49,207 nucleotides of DNA from Burkholderiaceae bacterium (lineage in GTDB: Bacteria > Patescibacteriota > Saccharimonadia > Saccharimonadales > AQU-01), in contig JAYVTZ010000002.1 in NCBI GenBank assembly GCA_043788365.1, forward strand, positions 1 to 49,207, given 5' to 3'. Shown here one piece after another: positions 5,710 to 29,030 of the stretch; position 1 is the first letter of the stretch, and each line of letters opens with the position of its first letter. The notes beneath the pieces were generated by a model. That model was not told the DNA's origin. It did not search any database and saw only the letters and a list, made by a program, of their open reading frames with translations. The translations under genes and the position numbers were made by a program.

Positions 5710-5950
5710 AAATTCTTAACAATAAGCTTAACATTATTACGACTCAAAATTATATTTAATATTTTTTACTGGTCAGAGCGTCATATTCGTGCCGGTATTT
5801 CTTTTGACAGCGGGACTTAGTTCATCATGTTTTGGTTGGCTTTTTATATGTCTTTTATTACTGGCATGGCATGATTGTAACTGTTAATTTATAATAATCC
5901 GTGAATAATTTTTGCTATTTTTAATTAAAAGCTCTTGCTCGCTACTTGCA

Positions 5951-5986
5951 AATAAAAAAGATTCAGTTAGCCTGAATCTCTTTTAT
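5951..5986 (-). terminator. rho-independent terminator after tRNA-Arg(TCG)
   Basis: Minus strand reads AAAGAGATTCAG-GCTAA-CTGAATCTTTTTT immediately 3' of the tRNA. Confidence 0.55.
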
Positions 5987-6063
5987 TGGTGCGCCCGGAC
6001 GGATTCGAACCGCCGACTTTCTGTTCCGAAGACAGACGCTCTAATCCACTGAGCTACGGGCGC
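5987..6063 (-). tRNA. tRNA-Arg (anticodon TCG), CCA encoded
   Basis: Hand-folded cloverleaf: acceptor GCGCCCG/CGGGCGC, D arm GCTC..GAGC, anticodon stem TCTGT/ACAGA with loop CTTCGGA, T arm GGCGG-TTCGAAT-CCGTC, then ACCA. Confidence 0.9.
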
Positions 6064-14501: not shown

Positions 14502-17237
14502 ATGATTAAATTGTTGCGTAAAATTAGTCTTGTAATGGCTTCTTTATTAGTATTACTATTGCCATTGACTCCACTTCAGATAGTGCATGCTGATGGGCCC
14601 AATTTAGTCTTAAATCCATCAGTCGAAACAACAAACATTCAGGGTTTACCGAATAATTGGTCGGCCCTTAAAAGTGGGACTAATGTCTCTACATTTACAT
14701 ACGTAACTACTGTCGGCAACATTGGCACTCACAGTTTATTAATCAATATGTCTAATCGCACAAACGGTGACGCTAAATGGCGTTCTGATCCAATTTTAAT
14801 TAAATCAAATCAGAAATACAGTCTTAGTGATTTTTATAAAGCTACTTCTAGGAACGAATTTGATCTCGAGTACAGTGATATAAATGGCGTCAAGACAGTA
14901 GTAAATTTACCTCAAATTAACACCTCTAACAACTGGGCAAAAGCTACCCAAACATTCACATCTCCCGCTAATGCTGTTTCTGTCATTGTAATGCACACTT
15001 TGCTACGCGTTGGTTCACTTCAAACTGACGATTATAGTCTAAATGAAGTAACTGCTCCGCCTACGGTAACTGTTACAAGTCCAGCGTTAAGTTCATTGTT
15101 AAGCGGAATTGTTCCTATTAATGCTAACGCAACCAATGCCGCTGGCGTGCAGTTTAAAGTGGATGACATAAGCGTTGGTGCGGAAGTTTTGATAGCGCCC
15201 TTTACTACTAGCTGGAATACAACAGTTCTAGCCAATGGCATACATACTGTTTCAGCTGTGGCACGTAACAGCACCGGCACAACTGCAACTTCAAGTGTTT
15301 CCGTTAATGTATTTAACAACACCGTTCTACCTACCGCTCCTACTGTGACGATTACTGCTCCATATAGTAATGCCACAGTAAGTGGTACTGGCCAGGCTTT
15401 GAGTGCAAATGTAACTAGTGCACAGACGGTTAGTGGTGTTCAGTTTAAAATAGATGGTATAAATATTGGCACAGAAGATATGGCGGCGCCCTACTTTGTT
15501 AATTGGGATACGACTTCGGTAGCTAATGGCATACACATTGTTACAGCAACTGGCAGAACTACAAATAATCTTTCAACTACATCGACCACACTTATTAATG
15601 TACAAAATCTTGCAGCACCAGCTCCACCAACAAACTTGATCTCAAATCCATCGGTCGAATCAGCAACCAGTACAATCCCTACTGACTGGACAAGTAGTAG
15701 CTGGGGAGCAAATACGCCTGTATTTACCTATGAATCAACTGGTCACACCGGTACACATAGCGTTAAAACAACTATGACTGGTTTCGTCAACGGTGACGGC
15801 AAATGGTTCTTTGCGCCAGTTACTGTTACAGCCGGTCAATCATATGATTACAGCCACTTCTACCAGTCGAGCGTTACTACAGATGTCGTCGCCCAATTCA
15901 CCAACGCTAGCGGTGTTGATAGCTACAAATGGCTTAACACACTAGCATCGAGTGCAACCTGGCAGCAATTTAGCTCTAGCTTCGTGATTCCTGCCGGAAC
16001 AGTCAAACTTACAGTACTTCACGTTATATATAGCGTTGGCTTCATCCAAATTGACGATGCCTCACTAACCACTTCGGCACCTGCTGTTGTATTACAAACA
16101 GGTGAAGTTTTAAATAGCTCTATGGAAACATCGAGCGGTAACCCAGCCATACCAAATAACTGGCAAAAAAGTAGTTGGGGCACCAACACCTCAACTTTTG
16201 AGTACTTAAATGAAGGTCACACTGGCACTCACAGTACAAAAGTTACTGTAAGTAATTACGTTGATGGTGACGGTAAGTGGTTCTTTAACCCGTTGACTAA
16301 CCTAACTCGTGGTGGCCAATACCGCTTTAGTGCTTGGTATAAAACCAACACTACACCTCATGCCGTAGCTGTTTATACACTAGATGACGGTACAAATAAG
16401 TTCTTTGGTATGCCAAACCCTCAATCAGACGCTAGTAGCGCTACAACTTGGCAATTCTATACTGACACTTTCCAAGTACCAACCAACGCCAAAGATCTAA
16501 CTGTTTACTTCTTTATGCCCGGTAATGGTTGGGTTCAGATTGATGATCAGGCAATTACTCCATATCAACCTGTTGCCTTTAACCGACCTTTGGTAACGCT
16601 AACTTTTGATGATGGCGCAGAAGAGAATATTACTACAGCCCTACCCTTACTAAATCAATTCGGTTTTAAATCTACACAGTGTTTTGCAACAAGCTTCGTT
16701 GAAGGTGTTGCCGGTGGTCCACAAAATGTCGCTGCCTTTAAGAACACTGGCCACGAGATTTGCTCTCATACTGTAACTCACCCATTCATGACTCAAATTC
16801 CTATATCTCAACTAACTACCGAACTTGTACATTCTCAACAATACCTTCAGTCACTTACAGGCTCAAGCGTATTAGATTTTGCCTCGCCTTACGGTGACTA
16901 TAATTCAACAGTAAATAATGAAATAAAAAAGTATTATAGGTCTCATCGCACTGTCGACGAAGGTTACAATACTAAGGATAACTTTGGTATCTACCGGCTA
17001 CGCGTTCAAAACATGACGCCTACAACCAGCCTTGCTCAGTATCAGGCATGGATAAATGAGGCAAAAGCCGAGAATTCATGGTTAATATTGGTCTATCACA
17101 AGGTTACAACTGGCGTTCCAGATCCTTACGATACTTTACTGCCAGATTTCCAAACACAACTACAAGCTATCAAAAATAGCGGTATTACAGTCAAGACCTA
17201 CTCGGCTGCACTAGACGAACTAACTTCACAGCTTTAG
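14502..17237 (+). CDS. secreted multidomain polysaccharide deacetylase (3 CBM4/9-like modules, 2 Ig-like domains, C-terminal CE4 NodB domain)
   Basis: Signal peptide MIKLLRKISLVMASLLVLLLPL...VHA. Three internal repeats of the NPSVE...W...GTHS...GDxKW...QxDD type. Two Ig-like repeats (GVQFK(V/I)D...ANGIH). NodB motifs LTFDDG and SHTVTHP. Start at ATG 14502 with a GGAG RBS. Confidence 0.8.
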   Translation: MIKLLRKISLVMASLLVLLLPLTPLQIVHADGPNLVLNPSVETTNIQGLPNNWSALKSGTNVSTFTYVTTVGNIGTHSLLINMSNRTNGDAKWRSDPILIKSNQKYSLSDFYKATSRNEFDLEYSDINGVKTVVNLPQINTSNNWAKATQTFTSPANAVSVIVMHTLLRVGSLQTDDYSLNEVTAPPTVTVTSPALSSLLSGIVPINANATNAAGVQFKVDDISVGAEVLIAPFTTSWNTTVLANGIHTVSAVARNSTGTTATSSVSVNVFNNTVLPTAPTVTITAPYSNATVSGTGQALSANVTSAQTVSGVQFKIDGINIGTEDMAAPYFVNWDTTSVANGIHIVTATGRTTNNLSTTSTTLINVQNLAAPAPPTNLISNPSVESATSTIPTDWTSSSWGANTPVFTYESTGHTGTHSVKTTMTGFVNGDGKWFFAPVTVTAGQSYDYSHFYQSSVTTDVVAQFTNASGVDSYKWLNTLASSATWQQFSSSFVIPAGTVKLTVLHVIYSVGFIQIDDASLTTSAPAVVLQTGEVLNSSMETSSGNPAIPNNWQKSSWGTNTSTFEYLNEGHTGTHSTKVTVSNYVDGDGKWFFNPLTNLTRGGQYRFSAWYKTNTTPHAVAVYTLDDGTNKFFGMPNPQSDASSATTWQFYTDTFQVPTNAKDLTVYFFMPGNGWVQIDDQAITPYQPVAFNRPLVTLTFDDGAEENITTALPLLNQFGFKSTQCFATSFVEGVAGGPQNVAAFKNTGHEICSHTVTHPFMTQIPISQLTTELVHSQQYLQSLTGSSVLDFASPYGDYNSTVNNEIKKYYRSHRTVDEGYNTKDNFGIYRLRVQNMTPTTSLAQYQAWINEAKAENSWLILVYHKVTTGVPDPYDTLLPDFQTQLQAIKNSGITVKTYSAALDELTSQL

Positions 17238-18505
17238 TTGTCAAATAACCAGAAATTTATTTTAGCCTGATTTAGATCAGCTATAAAACTAGCCATCACC
17301 GCCCAGTCACCAGTTTTTGGTTGACCAGCTTGCCAATACGACCAGTCAATGCCTTCACTATCAGCATACTTATTTTCAGCAAAGATATTAACACTCAGAT
17401 CGAATCCTTTAGACTGTAGTGACTTTGCTTGAACTGCGATATCGTCAAGAATCGTTTGCCTTTGACTGCCCGTCAAGCTAAATCCTGCCTGATTCGAATT
17501 CTTGGCTCTTGCAAAAGTACCGGTATTAAACCAAATATTTTTAGCTCCAAGGGCTGTTGCTGCCTCACTTGCTAGACTTGGATTTAAAAAATGCCCAGCA
17601 TTATAATCTGGTGTATTGTCTGGCCAGGCAAAACCCTGATAACCCAAACTATCAATTAAGTTTTTAGGAATGTTCTTAACATAGTCTACTAAGCTCGAGT
17701 AAGCTCCATGGTCCCATGACGAGTCTGGGTAAGTTTTACTATCAAACATCACACTTGTAAGACTTCCAGGGAAAAATTTCTTTTGGATTTGTGCAGTTCG
17801 ACTTACGCAAGCAGCAAAAGTATCTGGCGATATATAACTTCCCCACGACGGCGTGTTCGCCTCCGGCAATATTACCCATTCGCCCAACATTTTGTCACTA
17901 ATTGATTTTGCCTTGATACTAGAAAATAATTTTTCTAAAACTGGGTCATATTTACCATTTTGATAATCAATAAAACTTAAATTTGCGGAACTAGTAACAG
18001 GCTCAAATATAACTAGTGGCTTAATACCAAACTGGTCGTACTCCTTAAGTTGAGTCACCACATCATCAGCTGTGCTCGTAGCATCATTTACGTCTTTGGG
18101 CATCCCGACAAATATCATTGATCTGTCAACGACCGCACTATTGCATAACAATTCATAATCACTAATTTTACGAATTTCTGGGTAATTACTCTTGTTTAAA
18201 TTTGTATGTGGTGGCGTAAGCGTTTGGCAGTTACCTTGCCTAAGTATGTGATTACTAACAGGGCTAGTACTAGCTAAAACTGCGCTTGAACTATTTTGAT
18301 TAATCGCAAGGTGATTGCTAGGGCGAGGAAAGACGGTACGTATAATACCAGCTACATCGACAGTTGACTTAAATACAGAAATTTCTGCCTTTTTACCACG
18401 AGTAAAAGCTGCAAGTAACCCTATAGTTAATACGAGAAAGCCAATTCCGGCAGACTTTAATAATCGGTGACGACGGTATAGATTAACATCATATTGATAG
18501 GTCAT
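17234..18505 (-). CDS. membrane-anchored extracytoplasmic protein, possible glycoside hydrolase
   Basis: N-terminal TM anchor. The alternating beta/alpha-like pattern with IFEP and LPEANTP segments suggests a TIM-barrel hydrolase. The assignment is weak and rests mainly on context next to the GT2/CE4 genes. Confidence 0.45.
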   Translation of the reverse strand: MTYQYDVNLYRRHRLLKSAGIGFLVLTIGLLAAFTRGKKAEISVFKSTVDVAGIIRTVFPRPSNHLAINQNSSSAVLASTSPVSNHILRQGNCQTLTPPHTNLNKSNYPEIRKISDYELLCNSAVVDRSMIFVGMPKDVNDATSTADDVVTQLKEYDQFGIKPLVIFEPVTSSANLSFIDYQNGKYDPVLEKLFSSIKAKSISDKMLGEWVILPEANTPSWGSYISPDTFAACVSRTAQIQKKFFPGSLTSVMFDSKTYPDSSWDHGAYSSLVDYVKNIPKNLIDSLGYQGFAWPDNTPDYNAGHFLNPSLASEAATALGAKNIWFNTGTFARAKNSNQAGFSLTGSQRQTILDDIAVQAKSLQSKGFDLSVNIFAENKYADSEGIDWSYWQAGQPKTGDWAVMASFIADLNQAKINFWLFDN

Positions 18506-18644: not shown

Positions 18645-18719
18645 GCGGGTGTCGTACAACGGCCAGTATATGAGTTTTCCAAACTCAGGACGAGGGTTCG
18701 ATTCCCTCCACCCGCACCA
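18645..18719 (+). tRNA. tRNA-Gly (anticodon TCC), CCA encoded
   Basis: Acceptor GCGGGTG/CACCCGC, anticodon stem TGAGT/ACTCA with loop TTTCCAA, T arm GAGGG-TTCGATT-CCCTC. Confidence 0.9.
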
Positions 18720-18730
18720 ACAATAGGTAT

Positions 18731-18807
18731 GCCCCGGTAGCTCAGCGGATTAGAGCAATGGGCTTCTATCCCACAGGTCGGGGGTTCGATTCCCTCCCGG
18801 GGTACCA
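18731..18807 (+). tRNA. tRNA-Arg (anticodon TCT), CCA encoded
   Basis: Acceptor GCCCCGG/CCGGGGT, D arm GCTC..GAGC, anticodon loop CTTCTAT (one A-C mismatch at the top of the stem), T arm GGGGG-TTCGATT-CCCTC. Confidence 0.85.
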
Positions 18808-18988
18808 ATATGAAAACGCTCAGCTTCAGCTGGGCTTTTTATATTGGTCATCTCTGGGCGGGAGGGAATCGAACGGGAATGTCCTAGCGGACATTCCCCG
18901 CCCTTGGTCCGGCAACTAGTTGCCGGATGGCTATGGCCAGAAGTAATTTTCTTTTGGCCAGCTAGGTCGATTCCCTCCCGGGGTACCA
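18808..18988 (+). repeat. structured module U1 ending in an exact 22-nt copy of the tRNA-Arg(TCT) 3' end
   Basis: Terminator hairpin, GGTCATCTCTGGGCGGGAGGGAATCGAAC, then hairpins at 18875-18898, 18908-18927 and 18934-18960, then TCGATTCCCTCCCGGGGTACCA (18967-18988). Homologous to 20041-20216. Confidence 0.8.
18813..18841 (+). terminator. rho-independent terminator after tRNA-Arg(TCT)
   Basis: GCTCAGC-TTCA-GCTGGGC followed by TTTTT. The outer stem extends to pair ACCAATATGAAAA (including the tRNA CCA end) with TTTTTATATTGGT. Confidence 0.65.
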
Positions 18989-19223
18989 AATTAAAAGACT
19001 CGCCGTAAGGTGGGTCTTTTGATTTGGTTACTTGAGTGTATTGATCCCCCGACCGCGACAGCTTGCTGGCGCAAGGTCGGGAGTTCGCTATTCAGTCTAA
19101 TGCCCGAGATTTATCTCGGCGCATAGATTGAATATACCCTAGTATTCCCTCCCGTCAGGCGATGACCATGCCCAAAAGTAATTTTCTTCTGGCCAGCCAG
19201 GTCGATTCCCGCTTGGTGTTCCA
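18989..19223 (+). repeat. module U3: second terminator hairpin, pseudo tRNA-Arg 3' half with an insertion in the T-loop, and a diverged tRNA 3'-end copy
   Basis: AAAAGACTCGCC-GTAA-GGTGGGTCTTTT hairpin. AAGGTCGGGAGTTCG (19073-19087) and ATTCCCTCCCG (19144-19154) are separated by a 56-nt palindromic insert. A TAATTTT-loop hairpin (19170-19194) is followed by GGTCGATTCCCGCTTGGTGTTCCA (19200-19223). Confidence 0.7.
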
Positions 19224-19310
19224 ATTCAACACATCAGATTGTTCTAGTTCGAGCATTTCAAGCTTTTGACTACTTGTATCTGTTATTTAGTTCGAATCTT
19301 AATTGCTCCG

Positions 19311-19319
19311 TGCTAAGAT
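19311..19319 (+). promoter_or_regulatory. extended -10 promoter candidate (TGcTAAGAT) giving a leaderless methyltransferase mRNA
   Basis: TGCTAAGAT ends 6 nt before the ATG at 19326. There is no SD. The element is the same type as the one upstream of HTH-murA. Confidence 0.35.
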
Positions 19320-19325
19320 GGGTGC

Positions 19326-20018
19326 ATGCGAAAACAAAAGCAAATTTGGCTTTCAGAACATACCAATCAGACGACCTTACCAACGATGGCAAATGTAGAG
19401 CCCGCTAGTGGGGTAGTGTTATTCACAGATTGGCTAAACGATAACGGGATTAATTTTGTGGGCAACGCTGTAGATATTGGCTCTGGTAAAGGTCGTAATA
19501 GCGTCCATCTGGCTAAGCTTGGTTACGAAGTGTGGGGTTTGGAATATATAGAGCTAGCAGTTGATTCAGCGAAACAGTTAGCAGACAAAAATGATGTTGG
19601 TAGCAAAGTTCACTTTGAAATTTGTGAAGTTGATTCTGGCTGGAAAATTGAAAATAATTTCTTCGACATCGCTATAGATTCGTTCTCCAGTATCGATATC
19701 GAAACAAAAGAAGGTCGTGAAAAATGTAGAGACGAGATGTACCGTACGCTCAAATCCGGTGGATATGCACTCGTAACTGTCTGCTCATCGGATGATGAGT
19801 GGGAAAAGGAACTCATTTCAAAACATCCAGGTCCAGAGCCTAATAGTACGATTTGGCCACAGAATGGTAAGTTTCAAAAAGACTACGACGAATTAGAACT
19901 TAGAGAATTTTATAAAAAGTTCGAAGCTGTTGATTTAAAGAAAATTAGCAAACCAGCCTTCAAGTTAGAACGCGAAGGTACGGCTACCAACTTGTGGCTT
20001 GTGCTACGCAAAAAATAG
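19326..20018 (+). CDS. class I SAM-dependent methyltransferase
   Basis: Motif I VDIGSGKGRNSVHLA, an acidic residue at the end of beta-2 (GLE), and the post-I/II pattern typical of small-molecule methyltransferases (TehB/UbiE-like). Confidence 0.75.
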   Translation: MRKQKQIWLSEHTNQTTLPTMANVEPASGVVLFTDWLNDNGINFVGNAVDIGSGKGRNSVHLAKLGYEVWGLEYIELAVDSAKQLADKNDVGSKVHFEICEVDSGWKIENNFFDIAIDSFSSIDIETKEGREKCRDEMYRTLKSGGYALVTVCSSDDEWEKELISKHPGPEPNSTIWPQNGKFQKDYDELELREFYKKFEAVDLKKISKPAFKLEREGTATNLWLVLRKK

Positions 20019-20040
20019 TTCTAACCTCTGCAAGAATACT

Positions 20041-20216
20041 GTACCAATATGAAAACTCTCAGCTTTAGCTGGGCTTTTTATATTGGTCATCTCTTGGCGG
20101 GAGGGAATCGAACGGGAATGCATCAGCATGCATTCCCCGCCCTTGGCTTTTCAGCTGTGCCGAAAAGTTGTCATGGACGAATATAATTTTTATTCGTTCG
20201 ACAAGGTCGATTCCCT
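20041..20216 (+). repeat. structured module U2 (paralog of U1), starting with GTACCA and ending with a truncated tRNA-Arg T-arm copy
   Basis: The first ~80 nt are nearly identical to 18802-18881 (3 differences seen). The hairpins at 20114-20137, 20147-20167 and 20175-20199 have different sequences but the same positions. Ends with GGTCGATTCCCT (20205-20216). Confidence 0.8.
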
Positions 20217-20271: not shown

Positions 20272-20300
20272 TTGTTAAACTGCCCGTTTTAAGTTATAAT
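20272..20300 (+). promoter_or_regulatory. sigma70 promoter for the tRNA-His cassette
   Basis: TTGTTA (20272-20277), a 17-nt spacer, then TATAAT (20295-20300). Confidence 0.6.
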
Positions 20301-20447
20301 CACCCCTGTTCTTATTGTCTATTGTCTTATCCGAAATCACGAGAGGATTCGTGATTTCGAGAGGAGGAAGCTTTGTGGGGTTACTAATTTTGCGGAGCAA
20401 ATTTATTTTGTCGGCGAAATAGTAACTGCACAATTACATTCCGACGA
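20301..20447 (+). promoter_or_regulatory. conserved structured 5' leader of tRNA-His
   Basis: Hairpin GAAATCACG-AGAGGATT-CGTGATTTC (20333-20358), GAGAGGAGGAAGCTTTGT, the long-range stem GTTACTA/TAGTAAC, and the 17-mer ACAATTACATTCCGACG (20430-20446). Homologous to 28581-28778. Confidence 0.7.
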
Positions 20448-20525
20448 GGCGAGCTTAGCTCAGTTGGTTAGAGCGCCGGGTTGTGGTTCCGGAGGTCGTG
20501 GGTTCAATTCCCATAGTTCGCCCCA
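20448..20525 (+). tRNA. tRNA-His (anticodon GTG) with encoded G-1 and CCA
   Basis: G-1 then acceptor GCGAGCT/AGTTCGC, discriminator C, anticodon stem CCGGG/TCCGG with loop TTGTGGT, T arm GTGGG-TTCAATT-CCCAT. Confidence 0.9.
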
Positions 20526-20528
20526 TAT

Positions 20529-20555
20529 TAAAAAGTCTCACACAGTGAGGCTTTT
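20529..20555 (+). terminator. rho-independent terminator after tRNA-His
   Basis: AAAAAGTCTCAC-ACA-GTGAGGCTTTTT. The outer stem pairs GCCCCATATT (the tRNA 3' end) with AATATGGGC. Confidence 0.65.
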
Positions 20556-20705
20556 TAATATGGGCAAGCTCGTGGCATGGACTTCCACGACACGAGAGCT
20601 TTAGCTCACGTTAGTCGTGGCAATCAATAATTAGTCTTAGCCCCATAGCTCCAACGGAGCGGGCGGCTGGATTAATTTCACGCCGGTATTCCATAGTTCG
20701 CCCCA
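20556..20705 (+). other. tRNA-His trailer module ending in a duplicated tRNA-His 3' end
   Basis: Structured stretch, conserved AGCGGGCGGCTGGATTAAT (20658-20676), then ATTCCATAGTTCGCCCCA (20688-20705), compared with the tRNA's ATTCCCATAGTTCGCCCCA. Confidence 0.7.
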
Positions 20706-20708
20706 TTT

Positions 20709-20735
20709 AAAAAGTCTCAGAAAGTGAGGCTTTTT
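20709..20735. terminator. second terminator hairpin (near-copy of 20529-20555), also placed to terminate the convergent oxidoreductase gene
   Basis: AAAAAGTCTCAG-AAA-GTGAGGCTTTTT, lying 19 nt from the stop of 20754..21692. Confidence 0.6.
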
Positions 20736-20753
20736 AAATTTTAGACAACGTGA

Positions 20754-28580: not shown

Positions 28581-28778
28581 AGCCCTGTTCAAATATCTTT
28601 TGTCCTATCCAATTTTGCGAGAGGATTCGCAAAATCATCAGGAAAAAGCTTTCTTGTTTTTCCGAAATTGAGAGAGGATTCTCAATTTCGAGAGGAGGAA
28701 TCTTTGTATGGTTTATAGTATTGTTGGTCAAACTTGTTTTGCCAACAATACAGAAACCATACAATTACATTCCGACGC
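28581..28778 (+). promoter_or_regulatory. conserved structured 5' leader of tRNA-Pro (two hairpin modules)
   Basis: Hairpins ATTTTGCG-AGAGGATT-CGCAAAAT (28612-28635) and GAAATTGAG-AGAGGATT-CTCAATTTC (28664-28689). GAGAGGAGGAATCTTTGT. Nested perfect stems at 28706-28714/28754-28762 and 28718-28727/28742-28751. The 17-mer ACAATTACATTCCGACG (28761-28777). Confidence 0.7.
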
Positions 28779-28854
28779 CGGGGTGTGGCGCAGTTGGTAG
28801 CGCGCGCGGTTTGGGACCGCGAGGTCGAAGGTTCGAGCCCTTTCACCCCGACCA
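28779..28854 (+). tRNA. tRNA-Pro (anticodon TGG), CCA encoded
   Basis: Acceptor CGGGGTG/CACCCCG, D arm GCGC..GCGC, anticodon stem CGCGG/CCGCG with loop TTTGGGA, T arm GAAGG-TTCGAGC-CCTTT. Confidence 0.9.
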
Positions 28855-28862
28855 TATAAAAA

Positions 28863-28885
28863 GGCCCACGAAAGTGGGCTTTTTT
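28863..28885 (+). terminator. rho-independent terminator after tRNA-Pro
   Basis: GCCCAC-GAAA-GTGGGC followed by TTTTTT. The extended stem pairs CCGACCATATAAAAAG (the tRNA 3' end) with TTTTTTATATGGTCGG. Confidence 0.65.
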
Positions 28886-29025
28886 ATATGGTCGGTGACG
28901 AGCTCCTACTTTCGACCCAAGATTTTTTGCCCTGCAAAAAAGACGGAAGGTCGAAGGTTCGGTCATCAGTCACAGGCCCCAGCGTAGCGGGCGCCTGGAT
29001 TGATGTGCGCATGCCCTTTCTCCCC
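28886..29025 (+). other. tRNA-Pro trailer module: pseudo tRNA-Pro 3' half split in the T-loop
   Basis: AGGTCGAAGGTTCG (28948-28961, identical to 28822-28835), a 51-nt insert containing AGCGGGCGCCTGGATTGAT (28986-29004), then GCCCTTTCTCCCC (29013-29025), compared with the tRNA's GCCCTTTCACCCC. Confidence 0.7.
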
Positions 29026-29030
29026 AAAAC

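Follow-up and report, generated by a model that had tools for sequence, protein, structure and literature searches.

Folded modules bordered by tRNA 3' ends are stacked behind a tRNA-Arg gene of Saccharibacteria and may be small non-autonomous insertions

Mobile DNA is thought to be scarce in the tiny genomes of Saccharibacteria and other Patescibacteria. We asked what could account for the repeated end of a tRNA gene in one such genome. The stretch that we analyzed (the window) comprises 49,207 nucleotides of contig JAYVTZ010000002.1 (positions 1 to 49,207, forward strand). Within it, the last 22 nt of tRNA-Arg(TCT), TCGATTCCCTCCCGGGGTACCA (18786-18807), are repeated exactly at 18967-18988. 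A sequence-only reading had reported one exact, one diverged, and one truncated copy besides the tRNA itself, three hairpins with a TAATTTT loop, and the absence of an integrase; it had proposed serial decayed integrations, trans-mobilized miniature elements that target the T arm/acceptor, or a functional array of tRNA-3'-end mimics. We recovered all four copies and all three hairpins at their places, and no window ORF contains an integrase or transposase domain (Pfam). The repeats are far in excess of chance: TCGATTCCCNNNNGG with at most one mismatch is found six times (0.39 expected), and TAATTTT-N13-AGGTCGATTCCC three times (0.01 expected). Logan contigs of two other sequencing runs are 100% identical to the window over 18874-20096, so the array is not an assembly artefact. 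These contigs stop at 18780, 18874, and 20096, places at which the modules described below disrupt short-read assembly; the tRNA 3' fragments that they contribute may also mislead scans for tRNA genes and genomic islands. The features of the region are as follows, with X denoting a sense (forward) and X' an antisense copy of the tRNA 3' end.

18645-18719, + strand: tRNA-Gly(TCC) (ARAGORN; Rfam, 64.3 bits), co-oriented with tRNA-Arg and 11 nt 5' of it
18731-18807, + strand: tRNA-Arg(TCT), the anchor of the array (ARAGORN and Rfam); tRNA positions 55-76 are copy X0 (18786-18807)
18804-18848, + strand: terminator hairpin T1, whose 5' foot is the ACCA of the tRNA, pairing with TGGT
18845-18874, + strand: module A antisense copy X', in which 18859-18874 are exactly reverse-complementary to tRNA GTTCGATTCCCTCCCG
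18875-18959, + strand: module A core, with hairpins H1 (18875-18898), H2 (18908-18927), and H3 (18935-18959, loop TAATTTT)
18967-18988, + strand: forward copy X1, matching the tRNA end at 22/22 positions; 3' strand of the module A closing helix P1
18985-19028, + strand: terminator-type hairpin T2, with its ACCA foot provided by X1
19025-19168, + strand: module B1, comprising a diverged antisense copy of the entire tRNA 3' third (19025-19054), then a hairpin, sense AAGGTCGGGAGTTCG at 19073-19087, a 56-nt insert that contains a long hairpin and is positioned after T-loop G57, and sense ATTCCCTCCCG...ACCA (19144-19168)
19170-19223, + strand: 3' fragment of a type A module, with H3 (19170-19194, loop TAATTTT) and the diverged forward copy X3 (19200-19223, core 19202-19223); 81-89% to module A, covariance model (CM) score 19.2 bits
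19224-20018, + strand: cargo, consisting of a region that resembles a promoter and the CDS of a class I SAM methyltransferase
about 20017-20046, + strand: degenerate forward copy X_old, TTCTAACCTCTGCAAGAATACTGTACCA; the same 45-nt flank follows an unrelated ORF in locus L040
20043-20087, + strand: terminator hairpin T1', a copy of T1 (91%)
20084-20216, + strand: module A', with an antisense copy (20084-20113), H1 (20114-20137), H2 (20147-20167), H3 (20175-20199, loop TAATTTT), and the truncated forward copy X4 (20207-20216, within the repeat at 20205-20216)
20449-20739, + strand: tRNA-His locus, with the tRNA (20449-20525), a terminator, a module of about 145 nt (20562-20706) that ends with a second tRNA-His 3'-end copy (20688-20705), and a second terminator
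28779-29030, + strand: tRNA-Pro locus, with the tRNA, a terminator, an antisense copy (28889-28917), sense AAGGTCGAAGGTTCG (28947-28961), an insert, and a decayed 3'-end copy (29013-29030)

Several of these features had escaped the earlier reading, namely three antisense copies (18859-18874, 20098-20113, and the diverged one at 19025-19054), the forward copies at 19144-19168 and about 20017-20046, the repetition of A as A', and the analogous modules at tRNA-His and tRNA-Pro. The antisense copies of A and A' share an exact 16-mer, CGGGAGGGAATCGAAC. Module A (18802-18988) and A' (20041-20216) are 91% identical (D and D', 87-89%), and the differences between their hairpins are paired changes. Together, these features establish the anatomy of a module: a terminator hairpin with the preceding NCCA as its foot, then X' (antisense T loop and T stem), two to three hairpins, and X (the sense tRNA 3' end). 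Since X' pairs with X on the tRNA-sense strand, the module folds as a closed multi-way junction, and in the predicted fold the closing stem X':X is the T-arm sequence of the tRNA gene. The minimum free energy of module A is -82 kcal/mol (z = -7.4), and its X is predicted to be wholly paired with X', ACCA:UGGU included; module A' has a fold z of -5.3 and a CM score of 121.6 bits. Module lengths cluster at 120-180 nt, without an ORF, and the border repeats are 16-25 nt long. The mobility footprint recognized from the repeats has held up, whereas the closing helix X':X, and with it the fact that the intervals are conserved folded units and not decayed spacers, had been missed.

We compared the window with about 40 fetched loci (L-numbers). 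A covariance model identified eight copies of the type A family, to which module A belongs, in six sequence sources and five lineages, behind tRNA-Arg or tRNA-His; all eight lie directly 3' of a tRNA terminator, and none was found elsewhere in the approximately 260 kb searched. MAFFT alone aligned the His-linked copies badly, and a covariance-model alignment was used instead. In type A, pairing holds in 96.7% of cells, and both sides have changed in 22 of 36 base pairs; none of 500 shuffles matched the observed covariation, and controls with slid partners were 28-53% paired. Type B shows 17 compensatory pairs among 41, together with conserved G-U pairs. Conservation of the fold is thereby established, and it is specific to one strand, with type A scoring 113-135 bits on the sense strand versus 17-31 bits on the reverse strand. 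Module orientation equals tRNA orientation in all cases. The H2 loops GTAA and GCAA are of the GNRA type. Although their hosts have diverged, the window, L023, and L040 share one and the same sequence in H1 and the next junction. In L040 and L041, local rearrangements have not separated type A from tRNA-Arg(TCT).

The module ends track the neighboring tRNA. The T loop of the tRNA, the reverse complement of X', and X carry matching sequence throughout, and five such variants occur: for Arg, GATT, GACT, and GAAT, and for His, AACT and AAGT. Type B has a core common to tRNA-Arg(TCT) and tRNA-Lys(CTT), with its flanks switched to fit each tRNA. Judging from sequence comparison, the modules appear to be specific for tRNA 3' ends, with families that recur behind different tRNAs in Saccharibacteria and with X'/X matching the local tRNA in every case. 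The acceptor/CCA part of the repeat is cleanly gone in three of the six Arg-linked copies (A', L023, and L026), in all of which the hairpins are still paired. The acceptor-complement part of X' is conserved, yet it is not complementary to the tRNA (TGGTCATCNCTNGGCGG; window and L041). The left border of the repeat lies at T54/T55 in types A and B, at G52 in L019 (Arg-TCG), at A58 in B1 of the window and at tRNA-Pro, and at C61 in L037.

Presence or absence of a module at the level of strains is established by L037, which has one 163-nt module more than L036 and L039. The extra module is a complete unit without a coding remnant, has at its borders a 17-nt repeat, CCCACTGGGCCCTCCAA, of the tRNA-Lys end, and sits in flanks that are 98.2-99.5% identical; the original terminator comes after the distal repeat copy, and the new terminator is unrelated to the resident one. 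These near-identical strains thus provide a filled and an empty site with direct repeats of the tRNA 3' end flanking the insert, the footprint that the sequence-only reading had suspected. Among 18 loci with an identical tRNA-Arg 3' half, 7 have no module and the others carry type A, type B, or others, such that this one site holds at least four module types or none. In a case of cargo, L015 differs from L027 by a 1,677-bp insertion at the CCA end. The terminator palindrome of L027 is extended 4 nt into the acceptor stem.

The array also contains a gene. The methyltransferase CDS occupies 19386-20018 (Pfam; the start chosen is that of the database entries) and has 343 homologues, which lie in unrelated contexts. 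GTACCA junctions are seen around cargo, and 19217-19304 is 78% identical to L033 positions 706-793. We regard it as established that the methyltransferase is cargo of the array; by these comparisons the segment is a stranded deletion remnant of a larger accessory cluster. L029 and L022 have the same layout as the window, with ORF146 between two module copies, and L040 has a different cargo in front of the conserved degenerate copy X_old. Free-standing GIY-YIG genes are also found at Saccharibacteria tRNA 3' ends.

No recombinase is linked to the modules: we found none beside the module-bearing tRNAs examined, the neighborhoods of L013-L030 included, and none of more than 15 modules keeps a recombinase fragment. 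A frameshifted large serine recombinase island, with a homologue of the window methyltransferase, does abut a tRNA-Arg gene in L034. Its site is tRNA-Arg(CCG), not tRNA-Arg(TCT), and no module core in common was seen; we treat large serine recombinases as a candidate enzyme class. The divergently oriented 423-aa ORF that adjoins tRNA-Gly (17234-18505) was considered as an integrase analogue and rejected, as it has no Pfam domain, has a predicted membrane anchor, and is unlinked to the tRNA in L041.

Database searches returned no relatives of the modules. Rfam 15 at the gathering threshold reported only tRNAs in the window and 14 loci; lenient scans added chance hits on terminator hairpins and a weak tmRNA_permuted hit confined to tRNAs. 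TAATTTT-N12-14-AGGTCGATTCCC gave 10 matches in a collection of genome contigs, none near a tRNA and approximately the number expected by chance (hand estimate). Viral contigs contained neither the 3' motif of type A nor the core motif of type B, and neither core matched any of 50,697 phage records by blastn. Literature searches found no description of such modules, which are hence without precedent in Rfam or in the literature searched. Several known identities were considered and set aside: a permuted tmRNA or Y-RNA-like tRNA mimic (no model match, no cloverleaf), a type V-K CAST homing spacer (cas and tns genes are lacking), a retron or primer-binding-site analogy (no reverse transcriptase), a group I or II intron (the units are too small and match no model), an integron (core sites absent), and tRNA 3' fragments serving as spare parts for repair (modules can do without the CCA part).

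We see about an even chance that small non-autonomous insertion modules, moved in trans, are stacked behind the tRNA and that the repeated tRNA-Arg ends mark their right-hand borders. Trans-mobilized miniature elements are also the best fit among the three options offered earlier. Insertion would proceed by site-specific recombination: types A and B would enter the T loop between T54 and T55, or the CCA end would be the site, as at the GTACCA junctions around cargo. The mobilizing enzyme would be encoded elsewhere in the genome, and the form that it recognizes would be the single strand, folded such that X':X mimics the double-stranded target. The newest unit would lie next to the tRNA, hence the intact X1, the diverged X3, the degenerate X_old, and the truncated X4. 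Several points weigh against this reading. The left border varies (T55, G52, A58, C61), which is not what one recombinase with a fixed crossover would yield. The reading also gives no account of how X' and X come to fit a new tRNA when a family switches hosts. Type A lies behind tRNA-Arg(TCT) in lineages with MurA only 86-87% identical, with H1 identical in three of them, and such persistence looks like long-term vertical retention under selection, as for a functional RNA, and not like selfish turnover. Lastly, the L037 polymorphism could be a deletion between direct repeats instead of an insertion.

One alternative, which we consider unlikely, is that the modules are resident functional RNAs of the tRNA trailer, made by terminator read-through. 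The stem X':X would then be a processing or closing stem comparable to those that bracket rRNAs, the loops (UAAUUUU, AGUG) would carry the function, and presence or absence would be the gain or loss of a dispensable gene. Strong covariation with conserved G-U pairs, sense-strand specificity, the GNRA loops, the invariant H1 and junction, the constant orientation, and the retention of type A in rearranged L040 and L041 all fit this explanation. However, each module begins right after a canonical intrinsic terminator; none has a promoter of the TATAAT-CACCCCTGTT type seen 5' of the tRNAs in these genomes, no promoter-like site lies between terminator and X', and no Rfam family matches. It also leaves unexplained why X and X' copy the neighboring tRNA, why structurally unrelated types share a site in relatives, and why units stack and trap cargo. 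A functional array of tRNA-3'-end mimics was the weakest of the earlier options, given that half of the Arg-linked copies have lost the acceptor/CCA part with their hairpins intact.

We think it quite improbable that integrase-bearing islands or prophages entered the tRNA 3' end repeatedly and that deletions left only their att-proximal ends. Direct repeats of a tRNA 3' end are the footprint of an integrative element (review, PMC9897764), and such a history would suit the methyltransferase segment, the GTACCA junctions around cargo, and the L034 island; to this extent the proposal of serial decayed integrations stands. For the modules it does poorly: more than 15 of them hold no recombinase fragment and have clustered lengths, compensatory change has upheld their hairpins across lineages, which is unexpected of remnants, the L037 insert is a complete unit, and known attP/attR arms have no antisense copy. 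Very unlikely, in our view, is a mutational by-product, in which fold-back or template-switch errors at the terminator palindrome copied the tRNA end in alternating orientation and quasi-palindrome correction kept the arms matched, with neither function nor mobility. The forward, reverse, forward order centered on hairpins suits such errors, as does the palindrome growth in L027, and templated correction would give the three-way matching of tRNA, X', and X. The same correction would, however, erase the conserved G-U pairs, and the conserved part of X' that is not complementary to the tRNA, the recurrence of the same multi-hairpin cores at different loci behind different tRNAs, and the unrelated new terminator in L037 also speak against it.

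Within the reading as mobile modules, we also entertain, as a long shot, that X' is a built-in guide: the folded strand (DNA or RNA) would base-pair with the sense strand of the tRNA T arm on both sides of the insertion point, and the element would choose its own target. In type B, the partners of X' would be the variable loop and the 5' strand of the T stem on one side, and on the other the T loop with the 3' strand of that stem. With an altered X', a family that uses tRNA-Arg would be redirected to tRNA-His or tRNA-Lys, and a matching X would follow by construction, so that the tRNA, X', and X would covary three ways. IS110 bridge RNAs and the exon-binding sites of group II introns find targets by base pairing, as would be the case here for a 160-nt element without a protein gene.

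The tRNA 3' ends of Saccharibacteria appear to be busy landing pads, with several families of folded mini-modules, stranded cargo, and GIY-YIG genes. If the modules move, they constitute a compact tRNA-end-specific system with its own ends written in the target sequence, and the question becomes how a 160-nt element without a protein gene finds the T loop and copies it in both orientations. If they are RNAs instead, there are at least two new classes of structured RNA tied to tRNA operons.

Among known systems, the modules resemble tRNA-targeting integrative elements (att sites of tyrosine or large serine integrases) and the CIMEs derived from them by loss of the integrase in their apparent insertion at the 3' part of a tRNA that stays intact, with tRNA 3'-end repeats at both borders, and in apparent tandem accretion, with the presumably newest unit beside the tRNA and cargo trapped. 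They differ in being geneless and 120-180 nt long, with no integrase in or near any copy (window ORFs; L013-L030 neighborhoods), in holding an antisense target copy and a covarying fold, and in a repeat border that varies by module type. MITEs and REP/BIME/REPIN sequences are likewise small, non-coding, hairpin-rich, and intergenic, with palindromic units that alternate in orientation, would require mobilization in trans, and lie after genes as possible terminators or stabilizers. In place of fixed terminal inverted repeats, a short target-site duplication, and dispersed copies, the modules have inverted repeats that change with the neighboring tRNA, border repeats of 16-25 nt, and copies only behind tRNAs in the approximately 260 kb searched, and no RAYT or transposase was seen. 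Plant mitochondrial t-elements, mascRNA, and viral tRNA-like structures (TLS) share a 3' end of acceptor strand plus CCA, followed by a tRNA-type terminator. A t-element or TLS would be expected to have an acceptor/T-arm mimic whose free NCCA end is needed for function. In the predicted fold of the modules, the tRNA-like strand is fully paired to the antisense copy, and neither a cloverleaf nor an acceptor/T minihelix forms; half of the Arg-linked copies dispense with the CCA part, and the Rfam tRNA model gives no score.

Integron cassettes and their attC sites, ORF-less cassettes and chromosomal arrays of near-identical attC among them, resemble the modules in that structure is conserved over sequence in a fold of one strand, as the compensatory changes of types A and B indicate for the modules. 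Both kinds of array have a fixed platform, some empty units and others with one gene, and similar repeats within an array. Here there is no IntI, the platform is a tRNA gene, and the site arms copy the target tRNA; the attC core motifs R''/R' (RYYYAAC / GTTRRRY) are absent, X' ending in TCGAAC or TTGAAC and X beginning with TCGAT or CAAGT. The folded attP of CTX-phi-type elements, which exploit Xer, likewise has two inverted target copies about 100 nt apart, a stem that imitates the double-stranded site, and no recombinase of its own. In the modules, the target would be the tRNA T arm and not dif, the whole element is about 160 nt, and the module body emerges in the middle of the mimic as a multi-way junction.

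The fourfold reiteration of the tRNA-Arg(TCT) 3' end that a sequence-only reading had proposed was confirmed. The last 22 nt of the gene recur exactly at 18967-18988 (X1), with a diverged copy at 19200-19223 (X3), a truncated copy at 20205-20216 (X4), and three hairpins with a TAATTTT loop at 18935-18959, 19170-19194 and 20175-20199. The repeat motif has 6 matches against 0.39 expected and a second motif, the TAATTTT hairpin loop plus repeat, has 3 against 0.01, both far in excess of chance. Logan contigs from two further sequencing runs are 100% identical over 18874-20096. That reading had also seen no integrase in the 49-kb window, and indeed recombinase and transposase domains are absent from every ORF; the window genes are housekeeping (MurA, MurB, Mur ligase, SHMT, RNase Y, RecA, RuvB and type IV pilus genes). 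Its close homologues carry database names that put the window in Saccharibacteria / Saccharimonadales.

Overlooked, however, was an antisense partner (X', a copy of the T loop and T stem) upstream of every forward copy (X). The tRNA's GTTCGATTCCCTCCCG appears in exact reverse complement, as CGGGAGGGAATCGAAC, at 18859-18874 and again at 20098-20113, and 19025-19054 is a diverged complement of the entire tRNA 3' third. A terminator-type hairpin follows each ACCA, its stem beginning with that ACCA (18804-18848, 18985-19028 and 20043-20087). The resulting array is as follows.

Features of the array and tRNA terminators (forward-strand positions; (-), reverse strand)
18645-18719: tRNA-Gly(TCC) (ARAGORN and Rfam)
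18731-18807: tRNA-Arg(TCT) (ARAGORN and Rfam)
18845-18988: module A; X':X closes three hairpins (MFE -82 kcal/mol, z = -7.4)
19025-19168: B1; antisense copy, hairpin and sense copy of the tRNA 3' third
19144-19168: additional forward copy, previously overlooked
19170-19223: 3' fragment of a type A module, directly after B1
about 20017-20046: degenerate forward copy (X_old), previously overlooked
20084-20216: module A', a repeat of module A
18804-18848: tRNA terminator, NCCA in stem
20521-20564: tRNA terminator, NCCA in stem
28850-28893: tRNA terminator, NCCA in stem
5950-6003(-): tRNA terminator, NCCA in stem

A and A' are 91% identical over their first 106 nt; beyond, their three hairpins differ by paired changes, and the stretch between the two modules is composite. 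In B1 a 56-nt hairpin insert splits the sense copy after T-loop position G57. Analogous modules lie behind tRNA-His (20449-20525) and tRNA-Pro (28779-28854) in the same window, and none lies behind tRNA-Arg(TCG) on the opposite strand. A 25-nt inverted repeat (19144-19168 and 20084-20108, 88% complementary) encloses hairpin H3, X3, a methyltransferase gene and a terminator; this cargo segment could be inverted or spanned by a long-range helix. We note that, in the same strain, short-read Logan contigs stop at 18780, 18874, 20096 and 20397, at or near copies of X and X'; the array breaks up assemblies.

The terminators of all tRNA genes in the window are symmetric (A-tract, GC hairpin, T-tract), with the tRNA's own NCCA drawn into the stem. 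Across relatives these stems differ entirely in sequence and keep their pairing. Several tRNAs are also preceded by a structured leader that is conserved and about 150 nt long (20300-20448 and 28590-28778; also upstream of tRNA-Arg and tRNA-His in the related loci L021 and L024). It consists of a TATAAT-CACCCCTGTT promoter, one or two hairpins with a GAGGAU loop whose stems differ by paired changes, AGAGGAGGAAnCTTTGT, another hairpin and, just ahead of the tRNA 5' end, ACAATTACAYYCCGACG. The placing of GGA within a loop is reminiscent of CsrA-binding RNAs, and the leader has no Rfam match.

Scanning metagenomes with the 3' half of tRNA-Arg(TCT) gave 18 loci. Behind an identical tRNA, seven carry nothing, two carry type A (L023, L026), four carry a second family, type B (L019, L030, L021 and L024, the last two being a single locus), and the remainder carry other module types. 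By MurA identity the two nearest relatives are L040 (87%) and L041 (86%), and both have type A behind tRNA-Arg(TCT). Type A also occurs behind tRNA-His (L023, L028) and type B behind tRNA-Lys(CTT) (L020). A type A covariance model detects eight copies, each directly behind a tRNA terminator; it found none elsewhere in the roughly 260 kb searched. In its alignment 96.7% of cells are paired, with both-sided changes in 22 of 36 pairs; 0 of 500 shuffles reach this, and slid-partner controls are 28-53% paired. Type B has compensatory changes in 17 of 41 pairs, and G-U pairs are kept in all or most sequences. The type A model scores 17-31 bits on the reverse strand against 113-135. On these grounds the fold is real and belongs to the tRNA-sense strand, in either RNA or single-stranded DNA.

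Each module matches its host tRNA. The tRNA agrees with both X and the reverse complement of X' in five T-loop variants: GTTCGATTCCC (window), GTTCGACTCCC (L040), GTTCGAATCCC (L041), GTTCAACTCCC (L028, His) and GTTCAAGTCCC (L023, His). The variant position shows four pair types in P1, the X':X closing helix. In type B, the sense part comprises the tRNA variable loop and T-stem 5' strand to T54, then a conserved core of about 100 nt, then tRNA sequence again from T55 to CCA; the antisense strand is continuous across the insertion point. The acceptor/CCA part of X is intact in window module A, L040 and L041 and cleanly lost in A', L023 and L026, with the hairpins still paired; what is kept up is thus the helix of the T arm rather than a tRNA-like 3' end. 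A second unit behind tRNA-Arg in L026 (about 850-880) is a type B frame without core, in which CCCGAACCAAAAAGGTCGGG abuts TCGATTCCCG. Relative to the tRNA it lacks only GGT, at the core site of other loci, which may be the footprint of an excision, or else a deletion.

The repeats are the borders of stacked insertion units. L037 differs from L036 and L039 (flanks 98.2-99.5% identical) by exactly one 163-nt unit behind tRNA-Lys(TTT). The unit comprises a new terminator and an antisense T arm, together with hairpins and another copy of the tRNA end. A 17-nt repeat, CCCACTGGGCCCTCCAA, borders it, and past the distal copy comes the original terminator. Over a short stretch, the sequence past the distal copy is similar, in L041 and L022, to that right after the tRNA in empty L042, which is no more than suggestive. 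Copy intactness drops with distance from the tRNA (X1 exact, X3 diverged, X_old and X4 degenerate or truncated), which fits insertion at the functional tRNA end that would push older units outward.

The methyltransferase (19386-20018) is cargo, with 343 homologues (66-83% identity) in unrelated contexts. The region ahead of it shares 78% identity with an L033 promoter region, which there lies before three genes (HD, APH and a 96-aa ORF) that the window lacks, and then the methyltransferase. The 45-nt flank behind the window gene is the degenerate forward copy, found in L040 behind an unrelated 193-aa ORF. L029 and L022 show the same order of tRNA, module, gene, GTACCA, terminator and module. 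L015 and L027 are 99.4% identical and are set apart by a 1,677-bp gene insertion at the tRNA-Arg CCA end, flanked by TACCAA; the inserted 460-aa ORF has an HExxH motif and no Pfam match. In L034 (4055-5718) and L035, a frameshift-split large serine recombinase adjoins the 3' end of tRNA-Arg(CCG). In L034 it heads an island with Replic_Relax, a TraG/TrwB-like ATPase, a YobI ATPase and a homologue of the window methyltransferase. The island appears to be a saccharibacterial integrative element that may also be conjugative. The phylum thus has elements that carry a recombinase and use tRNA ends, and these are candidates for acting on the modules in trans. We also note a small GIY-YIG nuclease ORF (PF01541) directly after the tRNA-Gly ACCA in L015, L022/L029 and L026, between tRNA-Gly and tRNA-Arg(TCT) and preceded by a conserved TTCGACTCRCTTCGYTYGCTCATGG; in the window this gap is only 11 nt. 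It looks like a free-standing homing-endonuclease gene targeting the tRNA cluster.

We give about an even chance to non-autonomous, tRNA-end-specific modules mobilised in trans. The data show their anatomy, fold and polymorphism and that no enzyme is linked to them; their recombination mechanism, enzyme and active form we infer. The main rival, a resident structured RNA, fits both how long type A has been retained and the fact that hairpin H1 is identical in sequence, but is unlikely: it leaves unexplained the terminator ahead of every module, the missing promoter, the stacking and why the adjacent tRNA must be copied. Classical decayed islands account for the cargo but not for conserved mini-modules, and seem quite unlikely. 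A purely mutational fold-back origin, at odds with both the conserved G-U pairs and the cores common to different tRNAs, is very improbable.

Rfam 15 holds no family matching the modules, and a full-text literature search found no description of them. That they form a self-guided element is doubtful; if true, it would be categorically new. Nearest among known systems are integrative elements that target tRNA genes, with their integrase-less derivatives, along with integron attC sites, the folded attP of CTX-phi type and REP/BIME or MITE elements. The modules have some features in common with each of these, but each fails one or more defining tests.
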